This document shows, one piece after another, positions 46,135 through 53,687 of a DNA stretch of 64,000 nt. The position numbers and the translations under genes were made by a program. The DNA comes from Syntrophorhabdaceae bacterium. GTDB taxonomy: Bacteria > Desulfobacterota > Syntrophorhabdia > Syntrophorhabdales > Syntrophorhabdaceae. The stretch lies in NCBI GenBank assembly GCA_963665295.1, contig OY762209.1, positions 4,160,001 through 4,224,000 of the forward strand. The letters run 5' to 3'. The notes beneath the pieces were generated by a model. It saw only the letters and a program-made list of their open reading frames with translations, searched no databases and was not told the origin of the DNA. Numbering within the stretch: the first letter of the stretch is position 1; each line of letters starts with the position of its first letter.

Positions 46135-46191
46135 GTAGTTACATATTTGTTACACAGTTTCATTATGTATACTATTGGAGGTTCACAGATC

Positions 46192-46485
46192 GTGAATGAA
46201 TTCTGCCCGGTTACGAGGACGTTAGATATCATTGGCGGAAAATGGACCCTCCTTATTCTGAGGGATCTCTTCGAAGGGACGAAAAGGTTCGGTGAGCTTC
46301 GAAAATCCCTGGAAGGAATAAGTCCCAAGACCCTGTCCGAAAGACTCCGTTACCTGGAGAAAGAAGGGATCGTTGAAAAGAAGATCTACCCGGAGGTCCC
46401 TCCCAAGGTCGAGTATTCATTAACGGAAAGGGGCAGAACGCTCCGCCCCATCCTGATCAGCATGAAGCACTGGGGGAATCTGTAG
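46192..46485 (+). CDS. HxlR (MarR/DUF24) family winged-helix regulator
   Basis: CPVTRTLDIIGGKWT, RFGEL, ISPKTLSERLR.LE, YPEVPPKVEYSLT; GTG after GGAGG. Confidence 0.93.
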   Translation: MNEFCPVTRTLDIIGGKWTLLILRDLFEGTKRFGELRKSLEGISPKTLSERLRYLEKEGIVEKKIYPEVPPKVEYSLTERGRTLRPILISMKHWGNL

Positions 46486-46555: not shown

Positions 46556-46900
46556 TCATGGCTGTGACCGGAATGTCTCCACCGCCGCTTCGATATCCCT
46601 CAACACCGGGATATCCGTGGAGAGGTCCACCATCTCGAACACCCGTTTTACCGTCTCATTTGCCCCGCATATTACCATCTTCCCTTTTCCTTCCTCTACC
46701 CGGCCCTGGGACTGGTAAAGAACCCTTATCCCTGCGCTGCTTATATATTCCAGATCATGGAAGTCCAATACGAGAAAGCACTGTCCCCTCTCCACCAGGG
46801 CCCTCAATGATTCTGTCAGTCCCGGGGCGGAAACTGCGTCAAGCCTCCCCTTAACCGTCAGGATCAGGATGTGATCTTTAGAATAATTTGTGATTTCCAT
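46556..46900 (-). CDS. STAS domain anti-sigma factor antagonist (SpoIIAA/RsbV-like)
   Basis: GRLDA, VLDFHDLEYISSAGIRVL (phospho-Ser motif), VKRVFEM; RBS GAGGAGAG. Confidence 0.93.
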   Translation of the reverse strand: MEITNYSKDHILILTVKGRLDAVSAPGLTESLRALVERGQCFLVLDFHDLEYISSAGIRVLYQSQGRVEEGKGKMVICGANETVKRVFEMVDLSTDIPVLRDIEAAVETFRSQP

Positions 46901-46951
46901 TCTTCTCTCCTCTCGCAGTGGATCCCCGCCCAAAAAGGCGCTCCACGAACA

Positions 46952-46978
46952 TTATCGGTATTTTCGCAGTTAAGTTTC
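46952..46978 (-). promoter_or_regulatory. Possible sigma28-like internal promoter for the STAS gene
   Basis: Minus strand GAAA-N15-ACCGATAA in the SpoIIE-STAS intergenic gap. Confidence 0.4.
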
Positions 46979-46985
46979 CCTTTGT

Positions 46986-49076
46986 CTACGCTTTTTCAAC
47001 CATCCCGGGGAAGGCGGCAGGCCCAAGGTACCTCACGCACAGCATGGTAATATCGTCGGATTGTATGGAACCCGCCGAGTGCGCTCTCACTGCGTCAAGG
47101 ACACGATGGGCCATGTCCTCCGGAGAAGTCATCGGGTCGGTCCGTCGCAAGGTAAAGAGGAGCCTTTCCTCGCCGAATAACCTCCCTTCGGAATCCATTG
47201 CCTCCGTGACCCCATCGGTGAACATGAACAAGGCCTGACCTTGGGACAGGACCATGGCCTGACCCTTGAAAGACGTCTCCCTCCTGATGCCGAGCGGCCT
47301 TCCCGGCGTCACGGGCACCGCCATTGCCCCAAGGTCCGGCCCCATCAGGTAAGGAGGATTATGACCTGCGTTTGCGTAATCGAGTTCTCCTGTCTCCACG
47401 TTCAGGACCGCGAGAAAAATCGTGGTAAACATGACGTGGTCATTCTCCTCGCAGAGAACATTGTTAGCCTTCGTGAGGATTTCCGAGGCAAAGGCGGGCC
47501 CCCTCTCGGCCGCGGCAAGGAGCCTGATAACCGTTTTGCTCCTCGCCATAAACAACGCGGCAGGGACTCCTTTATCCGTTACGTCGCCTATCACAAGGCA
47601 CAGGCGGGTATCATCGATGAAGAAAAAGTCGTAGAAATCGCCGCCCACTTCCCGCGCAGGTTCGAGTACCGCGAAAAGCCCGAAGGTCTCCCGGGTCAAC
47701 CCGGGAGGATGGGGGACCATGCTCATCTGTATTTCGTGGGCAATCTTCAATTCACTTTCAATCTTCTCCTTGGCGGCGGTGGTCTCCTTGAGTTTTTCGA
47801 TATACCCGGTGAGCGACCCTATCATAAATGCGAAGGCGTCGGCCAGGCCCGCGATTTCATCCTTCGATTTGCCGGCAAGGCTTTTGATCCCCGCACGGAT
47901 CTCGTCAACCATGTGAAAATCCGTGCGCGAGAGGGACCTCGCATAAAAGCTCAGAAGCTTCAGATTGCCTGTCATCCTGCCCACCAGAAAAAGGGCGAGT
48001 AGGCAGCTTAAAACGATGATGGTAATGGTGAGCACGATCTGCCAGGTGACAATCTTTTTGACCGGAGCATCTATCTCATCCTTGTAAACGGAAGCCACCA
48101 CATACCATCCCAGGGGGGCAAAGTAATCCGCGTACCCTTCCTTCAGGAAGCGATACTCGTTGGGATGGTCGGGTGGTTTGTTCCATAGATAGACAAAGGG
48201 GATTCCCGGGGTTGCGGACGCCCTGACTATGTCGTCATAATGGTTTGTGCCCCTCACGGGGTCCTTGACGCCGGCCACGTTCGTACCCGCCCGCTCGGGG
48301 TGAAGGAGCATCTGTTTCCGGTCGTCAAAAAGATAGAAGTACCCCGTCTTGCCTATGGTTATCCTGCTGAACGTATCTTTCAGGTCTGAGAGCACCCGGG
48401 CGATCTTGACGTCCTCATCCTTTTGGATGTCATCGATGTATACACCGGTTCCCACGATCCAGTTCCACTTCCGGTAAAGTTCTACGTAACTCAATTTCTC
48501 AACAGGCTTGTTCTCGCCCAGCCTTATGTGCCAAAAGGAATCAAACCCGCTTCCACGAGTCCTCGCCGTCTTTATGACGTCCCTTACCACGTATTTTCCC
48601 TTCACATCGCGGTATTGCCAAAGGTCTTTCTTATGGAGACCGGGGTCCGGATGGGAAATGTTCATTCCTTTCTCATCGTAGATGAAGAAGTAATCATTAT
48701 TCCCGAACTTGAATCGCCTCACTGATTCCGCCGCGAACTGTTTCGCCTGATTCTCGGTGAGGACGCCCGCTTCGTAAAGGCGCTCGCAGGAGTCGATATG
48801 CGCAATAACAACGGCTACCAGGTTTCTCAGTTGCTCCTTATATCTGAGCAAGGCGTACTCCCGGTGGTAGACAATGCTCTTGTACTGGTTTTCAATATCG
48901 AGTTTGACAAGAGAAAGTTGGTTTCGCGCCGCGTCCCTGGTCGTCCGACCCACAACCCGGGTGACTTCCGTGCCGGTGAGGGCCATAATCGCCGCAGATG
49001 AAACGACAAGTATGCCCACAATAAGAAGGAGCATTTTCGACCGGAATGAAGTGAACATCCGCGCTCCGAGGATCAA
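46986..49076 (-). CDS. Membrane sensor Ser/Thr phosphatase: Cache domains-HAMP-SpoIIE (RsbU-like PP2C)
   Basis: TM, Cache_2-like (YFFIYD...HP...D.KGK...W....KLSY...WNWIVGTGVYIDDI), second Cache module, TM, HAMP, PP2C motifs VGGDFYD, GDVTDKGVPAA, FTDGVTEA, SDDIT. Confidence 0.93.
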   Translation of the reverse strand: MILGARMFTSFRSKMLLLIVGILVVSSAAIMALTGTEVTRVVGRTTRDAARNQLSLVKLDIENQYKSIVYHREYALLRYKEQLRNLVAVVIAHIDSCERLYEAGVLTENQAKQFAAESVRRFKFGNNDYFFIYDEKGMNISHPDPGLHKKDLWQYRDVKGKYVVRDVIKTARTRGSGFDSFWHIRLGENKPVEKLSYVELYRKWNWIVGTGVYIDDIQKDEDVKIARVLSDLKDTFSRITIGKTGYFYLFDDRKQMLLHPERAGTNVAGVKDPVRGTNHYDDIVRASATPGIPFVYLWNKPPDHPNEYRFLKEGYADYFAPLGWYVVASVYKDEIDAPVKKIVTWQIVLTITIIVLSCLLALFLVGRMTGNLKLLSFYARSLSRTDFHMVDEIRAGIKSLAGKSKDEIAGLADAFAFMIGSLTGYIEKLKETTAAKEKIESELKIAHEIQMSMVPHPPGLTRETFGLFAVLEPAREVGGDFYDFFFIDDTRLCLVIGDVTDKGVPAALFMARSKTVIRLLAAAERGPAFASEILTKANNVLCEENDHVMFTTIFLAVLNVETGELDYANAGHNPPYLMGPDLGAMAVPVTPGRPLGIRRETSFKGQAMVLSQGQALFMFTDGVTEAMDSEGRLFGEERLLFTLRRTDPMTSPEDMAHRVLDAVRAHSAGSIQSDDITMLCVRYLGPAAFPGMVEKA

Positions 49077-50788
49077 TGCTCGAAATGAAGGAACAGAACG
49101 TTCATATCCCCTTTCCGTTCCTCGCGGATGCTGTCCGCATACTGCTGAATCATGTAGCCCGAGAGTCTCACCGCCGCCTGCACATCCCTCTTCAGTTCCT
49201 CCTTAGTAGGCCTGGAGGGCGACAGGAGAAGGGCCTGACCGCGGTATGATATGGCGACATCAAGTTTGAATTCATCGAATTCAACCTTCATCCTGATTGA
49301 GGTATCAGCCAAATCTATGAGAGACGCAGCCTCCAGGAATTCGTTCATGGCAGCTATGGCGTTACGGATCACCTCGGGGCGGGCCCCCCAGTTCCTTCCC
49401 TGATTCTCCATAAAATCGAAAATCTTGTCCGACGAATCAGTGCCCGCACCAAGATCCAGAACTGCCTGCTTCGAGATCCCTATCCTGAGGGCGAGGTTGA
49501 GAAGGATCGCGGTGACCGTTGCAAGGGAAAGGGATGAACTGAATATGGGTCTTATCCAGGGATGAACATTGAGATAGAGGTCGGGGACCATGTCCGCGCT
49601 CAGGCCGAAGATTATCGATGCCCCGACCACGAAGGTCTTGCGGGCATCCATCATTCTCGACATCATGATCTGAAATCCGGCAACGATCATGAAACTCACC
49701 GCAAAGATCAGCGTTGCCCCGATGACGGGTTTCGGCATTATAAGAAACACCTCCGCCAATTTGGGGAAGAACGCGAGGAGTATGAAAATACCGCCCGCAG
49801 CGAAGGCGATAATGCGGCTTGTGGCGCCTGTTGCCACGGAGAGACCCACATTCGAGGACGATGTAGATTGTCCATACCCTCCTATTATGCCGGGAATGAG
49901 CCCTCCCAGTCCGTCCGCCAGGATTCCTCGTGCTACCCGCTTCATGTCGGGTCGCTTCCACTCGCTGTCGTTGATCTTCTGGCACGTCACGAGGTCTCCC
50001 ACGGTCTTGAACGTAGAACAAAGTGTGGCTACTCCGAAGGGAATGATAAAGGAGAAATCAAAAGCCCATCCCACGTGGTTCAGTTGGGGAAACGCAAAGA
50101 CAGGAGCCTTCGATATCTTCTCCAGATCACTCCCCGTGAGAATACCGAGCAGGGCAGATGCCAGATATCCCGTTACCATTCCCACCAGGATACAGTAGAG
50201 CTTCATTTTCCCTTTGCTCCACACGCTGAGGATAATGATCACCAGGAAAGTGGTGAGCCCGACCATTATCTCCCTCGGGTGCAGAGAAGAACTGCCTGCC
50301 TCGTAGCCAAAGAAGTTCTTCACCGAAATGGGGATGACCACGATACCCACCATGGCCACCACAACCCCCGTCACCTCGCTCGGGAAGAGGACCCTGAGCC
50401 TGTGCATAACCCTGGAAAAAAGACACTCGATTATCCCCGCCACAGCGGTCATGCCGAAGAGAAGAGGGAGGCCGCCCGCCGCTACGGCAACCTTGGAGGC
50501 ATCGAAGTACGAGGGGCCGCACACCGACGGGCAGAGGAACCCTGAACCCAAGGGACCCTTCTTAAAGGCCTGTATCACCGTAGCCAATCCCCCGGCGATC
50601 ATGGACAGGCTTATGAAACTCCTCGCCGTCTCGGGCGTTATTGAGCTGCCCAGTTGACGGACAATGAGGACAGGAAAGATGATTGCAATGAAGAGTATAA
50701 ACACGTGCTGGAGCCCCAGCACAATAGTCGTAAAAAGGGGAGGCCTGTCATCTACGCCGTAGATCAGGTTTGTCGGTCTCTTGCCCAT
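49073..50788 (-). CDS. NCS2 (xanthine/uracil permease) family transporter with about 130-aa cytoplasmic C-terminal extension
   Basis: LIYGVDDRPP, LGLQH, FPSEVTG, GILADG, NVG...TG..SR, PKLA...MPKPVIG. ATG 50788 follows GGAG. Confidence 0.9.
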   Translation of the reverse strand: MGKRPTNLIYGVDDRPPLFTTIVLGLQHVFILFIAIIFPVLIVRQLGSSITPETARSFISLSMIAGGLATVIQAFKKGPLGSGFLCPSVCGPSYFDASKVAVAAGGLPLLFGMTAVAGIIECLFSRVMHRLRVLFPSEVTGVVVAMVGIVVIPISVKNFFGYEAGSSSLHPREIMVGLTTFLVIIILSVWSKGKMKLYCILVGMVTGYLASALLGILTGSDLEKISKAPVFAFPQLNHVGWAFDFSFIIPFGVATLCSTFKTVGDLVTCQKINDSEWKRPDMKRVARGILADGLGGLIPGIIGGYGQSTSSSNVGLSVATGATSRIIAFAAGGIFILLAFFPKLAEVFLIMPKPVIGATLIFAVSFMIVAGFQIMMSRMMDARKTFVVGASIIFGLSADMVPDLYLNVHPWIRPIFSSSLSLATVTAILLNLALRIGISKQAVLDLGAGTDSSDKIFDFMENQGRNWGARPEVIRNAIAAMNEFLEAASLIDLADTSIRMKVEFDEFKLDVAISYRGQALLLSPSRPTKEELKRDVQAAVRLSGYMIQQYADSIREERKGDMNVLFLHFEH

Positions 50789-50847
50789 GGAGTATTTCTC
50801 CACTACTCTTATCACTATACAGAATCTTTGTCAATCAGCTTCGGGCA

Positions 50848-52639
50848 CCATAATCCACCACCCCTCTCGCCCTTACCGCTGCTTTGCCCTCCATCCGAGC
50901 CGTCTTTCCCCACCACCCTTTAAATCGGAATCAAATATGAACCCTTCGTTCCGTTTCGTCTATCCAGACATGGCACACGCCTCTCTGACGGGTAAGATTT
51001 GGGCACACCCCTCCTTTCGCCGTCTCGTTCCACAAAGAGTCTCTTCCCCGCTTCTCATCATCTATCCCGAAAGTACAAGCTCCATGATGCGTTGCCGTGC
51101 TGCGAACAATAATTCCAGGGAGGGGTGTTCTCTCGATATGCGGATCACAAGTTCCCTCGCGTGGGTCATGACCCTTCCCGGCAGGTTGATGAGGGAAAAG
51201 CGGATCGCCTTCATTCTCCTGGTGGCCCATGATCCTTTCAGCACCAGACGTTTCAATGCCGAATTGATATTAAAGGCGAGGACCATTATCCACCACCAGG
51301 CGGCATTCTCTCCGAACTTACCCGTTGGGAGTCTTCCCCCGGCAAGGTCCTCTTTCATGATAGAGTGGGCCTCCTCCGATTTCCCTGCCCGTTTATAATG
51401 CCACCGTATCAGTTCATCTCCTTCCATATCCCTGTTTGTGACGATGCCGAATATCCTGTAGCGCTTTTGTGTCATCATCATCGTAGGGAATGAGAGTTGC
51501 CCTTCCATGCCGGGAAGGATATCCTGTTTTAAAAGCTCACGGGTAGCGAAGTAGCGGTATTCCGGATCCTTTTTGCTGTGGCCGACCGCATTGGGTACGT
51601 AGCAGACTTCGGTCCACTCCCTTCCCGTCTCCTTTCCTTCTTTATAGAGAGGTCTCCACTCTTCTGCCTGGGCCACTGCCTTTTTGAACTCAGAGGTCAC
51701 ATCGGCGCCTATGGCAAACTCGATCCTGCCGAAGCGTGTATTTTCGCCATTCTCGCAGTACTTCAGGAGGTCGTGTTGATACCCTGCGGTATCGGAACGG
51801 AGATAGACCTTCTCTACACCGGGAGGAAGCTTTGAGAGGGCTTCCTTGAATACTCTTAACTGTTCATGTCCCGCAGGGACATTGCCGTCCCTGAACTCGG
51901 TATGAAGAATCAACTCCTGTTCCGCCCACCAGGTATTGAACGGTTGATAGGCCTTATGGTGTTTATAACTGAAGAGGGCGCTTCTCTTCAACGTCTCTAT
52001 CAGGGTTGCATCCATATCGAGGGTCGCGACCTTTGGGGAGGCGGACTTCACTATGGAGCAGATGAAATCCCGGTGTACCTTCATGAGGTTCATAAGATGC
52101 TCGTTCGGGGCGGGAATGAAGGCCTTCCCCTTTTCCCTCTTCTTCTCCTCCCGCGCATCATGGAAGGCGGAGAGATACCGGAATATCGGGGAAGGGGAAG
52201 GGAACGTGCGTTGCCGCTCCCGGGCTTTCCGTTCCTTGCGGGTAAGCCCTTTCTGTTCTATTCGCCGCACGACTCTGCACAGCCCCTCATCCTTTTCAAG
52301 GATAGTTACATCGTCTACGCTGTCTCCTCCGGCAAGGTTCAGAAGAATGAGGGTGAGGATTATCTGCGTGTCTGTCCAGCCTTCACTCTTTATATGCATG
52401 TGAGCACCGATCGAACCGGCGAGGCCCAAGGCCGATGCAAGGTCGAGGTAGAGGGGGAGCCCTGCGAGGGAGGTCATGCCTGTTTCTCTTTTCTCTTCTT
52501 CATACTTGTACGGAAGGAGGCCCTGTGGCATAATTGATTCACCTCGTTGGTGATGGAATTTGGTGTGGTGACTACATTCTATCATCCCTATTCGTAGGGG
52601 CCAACGGGGTTTTTGATTATTTTTGGTGGGGGATTAAGG
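50848..52639 (-). mobile_element. IS1380-family insertion sequence (1792 bp)
   Basis: Imperfect 15-bp TIRs CCATAATCCACCACC (50848-50862) and reverse complement CCTTAATCCCCCACC (52625-52639), 13/15 identical. GGCA direct repeats at 50844-50847 and 52640-52643. Single transposase. Confidence 0.88.
51062..52531 (-). CDS. IS1380-family DDE transposase
   Basis: TSLAGL, LDMDAT, EFRDGN, LRSDTAGY, VTN, Y.RAGKSEEAHSIMKEDL, FGENAAW, MKAIRFSLINLPG; RBS GAGGTG. Confidence 0.9.
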   Translation of the reverse strand: MPQGLLPYKYEEEKRETGMTSLAGLPLYLDLASALGLAGSIGAHMHIKSEGWTDTQIILTLILLNLAGGDSVDDVTILEKDEGLCRVVRRIEQKGLTRKERKARERQRTFPSPSPIFRYLSAFHDAREEKKREKGKAFIPAPNEHLMNLMKVHRDFICSIVKSASPKVATLDMDATLIETLKRSALFSYKHHKAYQPFNTWWAEQELILHTEFRDGNVPAGHEQLRVFKEALSKLPPGVEKVYLRSDTAGYQHDLLKYCENGENTRFGRIEFAIGADVTSEFKKAVAQAEEWRPLYKEGKETGREWTEVCYVPNAVGHSKKDPEYRYFATRELLKQDILPGMEGQLSFPTMMMTQKRYRIFGIVTNRDMEGDELIRWHYKRAGKSEEAHSIMKEDLAGGRLPTGKFGENAAWWWIMVLAFNINSALKRLVLKGSWATRRMKAIRFSLINLPGRVMTHARELVIRISREHPSLELLFAARQRIMELVLSG

Positions 52640-52656
52640 GGCAAGCAAGGGCTCGC

Positions 52657-52835: not shown

Positions 52836-53687
52836 ATGAACATCGTTGCGGGCATCAGCGAAGATATCGGAATGCGGAGCGCAATGGAGGACGAGCACGC
52901 CATCTATGAGAGGCCCGACCTGTCCTTTTTCAGCGCCGAGGTGTACGACGGCCACCTGGGAATAGAAGCAGCGCGGCTCGCCTCGGAGATGCTCACCCCG
53001 CATTTTCTCAACGCCTTGTCCACTGAATCGGAAAAACGGGCGTACGACCGGGTCCCCGTGGAAGAGATGCTGCGGGAGGCCTTCGTCGCGATCGACAATT
53101 ACATCGTATACCAACGTATCAGAAGCGGGGCCGCCGCCGCGCTCCTTTATATCATGGGAGACCGGTTCCTGGCCGCCAACGCGGGCGACTCACGGGTTGT
53201 CATGGGCACGGAATCGGGCGTCATGCCCCTCACTCTCGATCATAAGCCCGATATTCCTGAGGAAAGGGCGCGGATAGAAGCGCTCGGCGGAAAGGTCACG
53301 CGGATCGGGGTCCCCCGGGTCATGGGTCTCCTTGCCATGAGCCGTGCCCTTGGGGACGCGGAACTCAAACCCCTGGTCACCTGCGAACCCCGGATAACTG
53401 CAGGTCTTCTCGGGCGGGAAAATGATTATGCGGTGGTGGCCTGCGACGGGGTGTGGGATGTCCTCAGCCCGGAAGCCGTGATGGATATCGTCCGCCATTC
53501 GGGAAATGTCCAAAAAGGGGCCGATGCGGTAAGAGATGCCGCTAGGCAGCAGGGAAGCTCCGACAATGTCACCGTCATCGTTCTCGACCTCACCCGCCAT
53601 ACCCGCCTGTGCAGCCGTGGATGGATGGAGATATCCCTTGTCTTTGACAAGGGACTAACCCTCTTGAACCGGGACGCCGCTCATTAG
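52836..53687 (+). CDS. PP2C/PPM family Ser/Thr phosphatase
   Basis: R..MEDEH, VYDGHLG, ANAGDSR, DHKP, SRALGD, ACDGVWD, SDNVT. Confidence 0.92.
   Translation: MNIVAGISEDIGMRSAMEDEHAIYERPDLSFFSAEVYDGHLGIEAARLASEMLTPHFLNALSTESEKRAYDRVPVEEMLREAFVAIDNYIVYQRIRSGAAAALLYIMGDRFLAANAGDSRVVMGTESGVMPLTLDHKPDIPEERARIEALGGKVTRIGVPRVMGLLAMSRALGDAELKPLVTCEPRITAGLLGRENDYAVVACDGVWDVLSPEAVMDIVRHSGNVQKGADAVRDAARQQGSSDNVTVIVLDLTRHTRLCSRGWMEISLVFDKGLTLLNRDAAH

Follow-up and report, generated by a model that had tools for sequence, protein, structure and literature searches.

We will describe a locus of three genes in a Syntrophorhabdaceae bacterium (assembly GCA_963665295.1, contig OY762209.1, positions 4,160,001–4,224,000). 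The whole stretch of 64,000 nucleotides (nt) that was analysed will be called the window. An earlier reading, made from the letters of the window only, had proposed a partner-switching system coupled to a transporter. Three co-oriented genes are present, as it had stated, and they lie on the minus strand: an NCS2 permease, a dCache_2-SpoIIE phosphatase and a free STAS protein. The permease ends in a tail which is a pseudo-RsbW domain, as had also been suggested, and this tail is our main subject. The features of the locus are the following (aa, amino acids):

49073..50788 (-): NCS2/SLC23-fold permease, 571 aa, with the C-terminal pseudo-RsbW tail (Pfam, NCBIfam, alignment to UraA)
49076..49468 (-): pseudo-RsbW tail, permease residues 441–571, 131 residues (profile and structure comparison)
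46986..49058 (-): membrane-anchored dCache_2/SpoIIE (PP2C) phosphatase, likely start ATG 49058, alternative TTG 49076 (domain search, homologue starts)
48069..48941 (-): dCache_2 sensor domain of the phosphatase (domain search, alignment to PscD)
47028..47615 (-): SpoIIE phosphatase domain (domain search, motifs)
46556..46900 (-): free RsbV-like STAS protein, 114 aa, Ser55 at the phospho-acceptor position (domain search, alignment)
50829..50834 (-): TTGACA hexamer, candidate -35 element, 46 nt upstream of the permease start

The PP2C metal-binding motifs of the phosphatase are intact (IGDV 496–499, FTDG 619–622, DD 674–675). In the STAS protein Ser55 lies in YISSAG, a position which is Ser in all 43 aligned STAS proteins; the protein belongs to the Tyr62 subgroup (12 of the 43), which accompanies tailed permeases. 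Both points agree with the sequence-only reading, and so does the local absence of a separate kinase gene: a search of the 64-kb window with RsbW/HATPase_c_2 profiles gave no match. Its overlap of the permease stop and the phosphatase start (TTGA) stands only in part. The overlapping TTG 49076 exists, but ATG 49058 is most likely the true start: GGAG sits 5 nt upstream and homologues start at the same place (for example L023, L024 and L028). With this start the junction is a gap of 14 nt, not an overlap of 4 nt, and the TTGA probably has no function. The TTGACA hexamer is also found upstream of the permease orthologue in a genome of the same genus. In the window it was not called as a promoter by our scan for promoters and terminators, which gave a single promoter-like site (46988–46960, ahead of the STAS gene) and no convincing operon terminator in the locus.

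The permease tail and its predicted complex

Taken alone, the tail matches no family in Pfam or NCBIfam. However, HATPase_c_2 (PF13581) is matched by 7 of 59 homologous tail fragments (best E 2.4e-4), and a profile of the tails can be aligned over its whole length with 19 genuine RsbW proteins (hhalign 96.9%, E 1.4e-10, 137 columns). The structure model of the tail has a predicted local distance difference test (pLDDT) of 96. Its best structural matches are UsfX, SpoIIAB, the RsbW domain of Rv1364c and RsbW, with Z 12.9–14.1 and a root mean square deviation of 2.0–3.0 Å over 101–122 residues; histidine kinases trail with Z of at most 8.6. Profile and structure comparison both give the tail the HATPase_c_2 fold. 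A search of PDB sequences with the tail profile returned only weak helix matches to unrelated proteins, which we rejected.

The tail family is large, with 427 representatives after clustering at 50% identity, of which many are fragmentary. We have counted motifs in 84 near-full-length relatives from the loci fetched (over 540 aa, one duplicate dropped). The ATP-binding motifs are lost: the N-box Asn, the G1 Asp and the first Gly of the G2 GxG motif are each found in none of the 84, and by its sequence the tail is a pseudokinase, presumably without activity. Glu483 is retained in 83 of the 84, among them 23 of 24 tailed permeases from loci without switch neighbours, and an extra acidic residue, Glu/Asp486, in 80. 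Glu483 aligns with Glu49 of B. subtilis RsbW, which is described as contacting RsbV Ser56 (PMC7340262).

The sequence-only reading had proposed to model the tail together with the STAS protein. The predicted complex scores 0.84 in ipSAE (interaction prediction score from aligned errors), and none of three controls scores above 0.00. The 0.84 may show only likeness to the homologous complexes RsbW–RsbV and UsfX–RsfB, which are already solved. The ipSAE mark applied is reached by 116 of 157 solved pairs and by 2 of 215 mismatched pairs. Prediction runs share at least 96% of their contacts and the partners have pLDDT of at least 87. Ser55 of STAS is positioned on Glu483 and Glu486, the closest predicted contact being Glu483–Ser55. 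The core contacts 483, 486, 542 and 543 are retained in 79–83 of the 84 tails.

The transport site and the sensor

The membrane domain belongs to the NCS2 fold: Pfam Xan_ur_permease matches residues 21–402 (E 3.6e-58) and Foldseek gives E about 1e-16 to NCS2/NAT/SLC23 structures. The NCBIfam scores are above the NCS2_1 cut-off and below those of pbuX and ncs2. With UraA, UapA and SVCT1 the permease shares the fold, the Gln-His of transmembrane segment 1 (TM1) and the Asn-x-Gly-x4-Thr-Gly of TM10; it differs from them by a Lys in TM8, a Ser in TM10 and the extra RsbW-fold domain. In the alignment with UraA, Glu241 becomes Lys261, Glu290 becomes Ser312, His245 becomes Asp265 and Tyr288 becomes Ser, so that the TM8 Glu of NCS2 is replaced by Lys and the TM10 Gln/Glu/Pro by Ser. 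Both UraA glutamates are reported to form hydrogen bonds with uracil (PMC5539350). Lys261 is found in 82 of the 84 relatives, Glu at this position in none, and Ser/Thr312 in 79; the permease lacks the canonical motif of nucleobase-transporting NAT proteins. In the definition of the NAT motif given in PMC5972032, ascorbate transporters carry a Ser-rich TM10 motif with Ser at position 2; the tailed permease also has Ser there, whereas its TM8 fails the Glu motif.

The same Lys/Ser site is present in two untailed sister permeases, whose genes follow stand-alone Cache_2 genes. Such Cache_2 proteins are found directly upstream of Lys/Ser-type permeases, tailed or untailed (L115:6924-7898, L117:6987-7928, L023:1341-1874, L028:1589-2122), and are possible solute-binding partners.

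The closest solved relatives of the Cache domain of the phosphatase are 4K08, PscD and a Vibrio sensor. Its Tyr129, His142 and Lys194 align with PscD Tyr90, His103 and Lys156, with Phe181 in place of PscD Tyr143; by this alignment it keeps the Tyr, His and Lys that are described as critical for carboxylate binding (PMC5062169). From the remodelled permease site and the carboxylate residues kept in the Cache domain, the solute of the permease is likely a small organic anion. Three relatives have the Cache-SpoIIE gene broken into two frames, by a frameshift or an assembly error (L166:7930-10000, L023:3916-6372, L064:9763-11781).

Neighbours and partners in other genomes

We have surveyed the genes within 5 kb of the tailed permease in the closest 80 of 312 GTDB stretches that encode a relative, all of them tailed, found with an alignment of 50 sequences as query. 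The controls were 38 untailed NCS2 loci from the phylum of the window, after L122 and L133, which have a second type of tail, had been removed from 40. SpoIIE is found at 42 of the 80 tailed loci, free STAS at 38, both at 37 and an RsbW-type kinase at 20 (22 before L026 and L037, whose neighbours are histidine kinases, were removed). The pair of SpoIIE and free STAS is thus enriched beside tailed permeases, as the sequence-only reading had expected: 37 of 80 against 0 of 38 untailed loci, and 25 of 51 when at least 3 kb is available on both flanks. The true linked fraction is probably well under half, since 17 of the 37 linked loci are Methanotrichaceae-type and in the phylum sample the pair is found at just 2 of 11 tailed loci.

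The linked loci show at least six gene orders. Their records are labelled Ignavibacteriales, Armatimonadota, Cloacimonadota, Bacteroidales, Dependentiae, Chloroflexota, Sumerlaeota, Syntrophales, Desulfobacteraceae and several methanogens. The sensor of the phosphatase is dCache_2, 5TM-5TMR_LYT or dCache_1, or there is only HAMP; pyruvate sensors such as BtsS also contain 5TM-5TMR_LYT. The order of the window (permease, Cache phosphatase, STAS) is found at nine loci, with an intact kinase added at four, fused to the phosphatase at three of these; the same-genus genome has the trio, likewise without a kinase. RsbW with intact kinase motifs, separate or fused, is present at 17 of the 37 linked loci. 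Smithella-type genomes have a different neighbour: their tailed permease follows a gene for a CoA-enzyme activase of about 1400 aa (BcrAD_BadFG/DUF2229), not switch genes (L072, L076–L078, L082, L084, L085, L088).

The 5.5-Mb genome of the window has an intact RsbV-RsbW pair at C1:3000134-3000868, about 1.2 Mb from the locus, where RsbW (G000:C1:3000494) adjoins its own STAS, and three further SpoIIE domains. Its second tailed permease (L001:7211-8917, G000:C1 about 271–273 kb) has Asp at the Lys261 position and a divergent substrate site, and sits downstream of an ADP-forming acyl-CoA ligase-like gene. A STAS match elsewhere is found in 33 of 34 tailed-permease genomes without adjacent STAS, compared with 71 of 151 genomes in the phylum sample; inside this sample it is found in 12 of 13 tailed genomes and 59 of 138 others. 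Some of these matches are STAS domains within longer proteins, and related genomes are not independent. The untailed sister permease is encoded in two genomes, and neither has a STAS match.

The module is also present in methanogens. Among Methanothrix-type genomes without an adjacent kinase, the kinase is found elsewhere in 5 of 5 tested; among archaeal genomes picked because they carry the operon, the sole RsbW match lies beside the permease in 4 of 5. In the order of one methanogen (G357), an RsbW-type kinase is found in 49 of 81 genomes and the tailed permease in 7, all of which have the kinase. The other 42 kinase-bearing genomes have no tailed permease match, and none of 19 fetched methanogen kinase loci has an NCS2 permease. 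These counts rule out the tailed permease as a general output of archaeal switches. The SpoIIAA/SpoIIAB/SpoIIE-like trio of Methanomicrobiales directly adjoins a tailed permease in L046 and L071, but most trios of this type lack one, by the same counts. Proteins of about 430 aa (N-terminal STAS, unannotated remainder) and metallo-beta-lactamase-fold proteins of about 570 aa recur beside methanogen switch genes (L181, L186–L188, L190–L194, L022:3929-5143, L171–L175) and are candidate alternative outputs. Some methanogens have two tailed permeases in tandem (L195:6532-9926 in G374, with similar tandem matches in G392, G398 and G410); the substrate motifs diverge in both copies, and the tail of one copy is shortened.

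A second NCS2 clade (L152–L158, L122, L133) has a different degenerate RsbW-like C-terminal domain, which keeps Glu-Glu and has lost the N-box Asn; of seven members scanned, four match HATPase_c_2 at E about 1e-3. This clade is without the Lys/Ser site, and all nine genomes have a STAS match elsewhere. That the two tailed clades form one exclusive clade is rejected (approximately unbiased test, p-AU 0.00016). It does not follow that there were two independent fusions, since a single fusion that was later lost from the untailed sister clade explains the data equally well.

Around the locus itself, an insertion sequence of IS1380 type (DDE_Tnp_1_4, 50844–52642, minus strand) lies about 10 nt upstream of the conserved TTGACA; it has five further near-identical full copies in the genome. 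The same-genus locus lacks it, and there the permease and a PP2C gene are immediate divergent neighbours. This stand-alone PP2C phosphatase (52836–53687, plus strand) is divergent from the permease in both genomes. An HxlR-type regulator (46147–46485, plus strand) is convergent with the STAS gene; none was seen at the same-genus locus.

A possible switch acting on a transporter

The sequence-only reading took the tail as the missing third component of the switch. In the sense of a kinase this fails: the ATP motifs are absent, and intact RsbW is available at many linked loci and elsewhere in this genome. A fourth component, a dock for STAS that is dead as a kinase, is a better reading of the tail. 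It is very improbable that the tail makes up a canonical three-part switch as the operon's own kinase or as an anti-sigma factor that binds sigma. The RsbW fold, the conserved Glu483 and the lack of another RsbW in the window would fit such a role, but it has to face the loss of the N-box Asn and G1 Asp in all 84 relatives, the intact RsbW genes at 17 of 37 linked loci and the presence of the family in methanogens, for which bona fide sigma factors were stated not to be known (PMC2686161).

Since the tail has no ATP motifs and is predicted to bind STAS, the transporter is a likely target of the switch rather than its kinase. Partner switching is best known for the control of gene expression; here the circuit likely controls a transporter directly. 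We give a probability of about 0.45 to the following reading: the tail is a phosphorylation-gated STAS dock which regulates a small-anion transporter, in a switch of four parts. The dCache_2 domain would sense a small carboxylate and set the activity of the phosphatase, and the intact RsbW encoded elsewhere (G000:C1:3000494) would phosphorylate STAS in trans; between them they would set the state of Ser55. Only unphosphorylated STAS would dock on the dead tail, because a phospho-Ser would face two glutamates. Docking would alter transport, most plausibly by turning on the import of a small organic anion; the least secure points are which way transport changes and which substrate is carried. 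There is a precedent in M. smegmatis for a dead binder that works alongside a separate kinase: kinase-dead RsbW1 is reported to bind only unphosphorylated RsfB, which RsbW2 phosphorylates (PMC7693655).

Several results weigh against the dock. The phosphatase-plus-STAS pair is absent at 43 of the 80 loci (26 of the 51 that have 3 kb or more on each side) and rare in the phylum sample. The 80 loci are not independent, being the closest of 312 and with their positives concentrated in Methanotrichaceae-type genomes. The second tailed permease of this genome (C1:271720) has no switch neighbours, and one tailed genome (G015, 94% complete) has no STAS match. In the order of G357 the kinase is adjacent in only one of the seven tailed genomes, and most kinase-bearing genomes do without the tailed permease. 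The complex score has the possible origin given above, and conservation at the 22 positions of the predicted interface does not exceed that of the remaining tail (mean entropy 2.19 vs 2.06).

This last result also favours a tail which is only an RsbW-derived structural or dimerisation domain with no useful STAS binding, its linkage being inherited from an old fusion inside the operon or due to shared transcription. Under this explanation it is natural that the most invariant residues (Gly464, Trp467, Glu506, Tyr515, Gly517, His571) lie outside the predicted interface, that about half of the loci have no switch neighbours and that SpoIIE, STAS and free RsbW are all absent from the nine loci of the second tailed clade. 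We consider it rather unlikely, as Glu483 is kept despite the lost catalysis, even at loci without neighbours, the linkage survives several gene orders and sensor types, and STAS is nearly always present in tailed genomes and missing from the two untailed sister genomes. The permease could instead be a sensor (transceptor), whose conformation, dependent on the solute, exposes or hides the tail, which would sequester STAS or shield it from kinase or phosphatase, with the output of the switch elsewhere. The nucleobase-binding and proton-coupling positions are both altered, which is also compatible with a loss of transport; methanogen switches often adjoin the other candidate outputs described above; and kinase-dead RsbW3 is described as an antagonist which acts through protein binding (PMC7693655). 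Yet the phosphatase of the operon already has a dedicated sensor, dCache_2 or 5TM-5TMR_LYT, and the untailed sister clade shares the Lys/Ser site, which is thus independent of signalling through the tail. We hold a transceptor to be unlikely.

The dock may be compared with known systems. As in the RsbU/RsbV/RsbW and SpoIIE/SpoIIAA/SpoIIAB switches of Bacillus, there is a sensor PP2C, a free STAS with an acceptor Ser and an RsbW-fold partner with a Glu facing this Ser. Unlike in Bacillus, the RsbW-fold domain forms part of a transporter and has no ATP motifs; the window has no kinase gene, and no sigma factor is present among the neighbours scanned. The division of labour proposed resembles RsbW1/RsbW2/RsfB of M. 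smegmatis, and UsfX of M. tuberculosis is the top structural match of the tail; the mycobacterial dead RsbW is soluble and holds sigma F, whereas the present one is attached to a membrane transporter as its tail. SLC26/SulP transporters, which are also structural matches of the permease, are described with the same 7+7 architecture and a STAS domain at the cytoplasmic side (PMC6497670). Their STAS is fused in cis; here STAS is a separate protein that has a phospho-acceptor Ser, and the predicted dock is part of the transporter. We have found no paper on the fusion or the system in the open-access literature, to which the search was confined, and the words 'permease' and 'archaea' do not occur in the accessible part of a review of STAS-only proteins (PMC8256260). 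The parts are known; their wiring is undescribed in the literature searched.

At rather less than even odds, we extend this reading to the family: a widespread type of SLC23-fold transporter of anaerobic bacteria and methanogens would be gated by a free, phosphorylatable STAS which docks on a dead anti-sigma kinase domain, with small organic anion transport as output. It would be a counterpart, switchable in trans, of the fused STAS of SLC26, and one target of the switches in some archaea without sigma factors. Even if there is no regulation, the Lys/Ser site marks an NCS2 subfamily which is annotated as xanthine permease and likely carries another solute in syntrophs and acetoclastic methanogens. 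If the reading is true, partner switching gains a post-translational output at the membrane. The locus would also be a clean system for STAS control of a 7+7-fold transporter, because its STAS can be supplied, left out or phosphorylated as desired. Finally, it would provide a testable target for a minority of the archaeal anti-sigma-type modules, whose targets in methanogens were described in 2009 as impossible to determine from the genome (PMC2686161).

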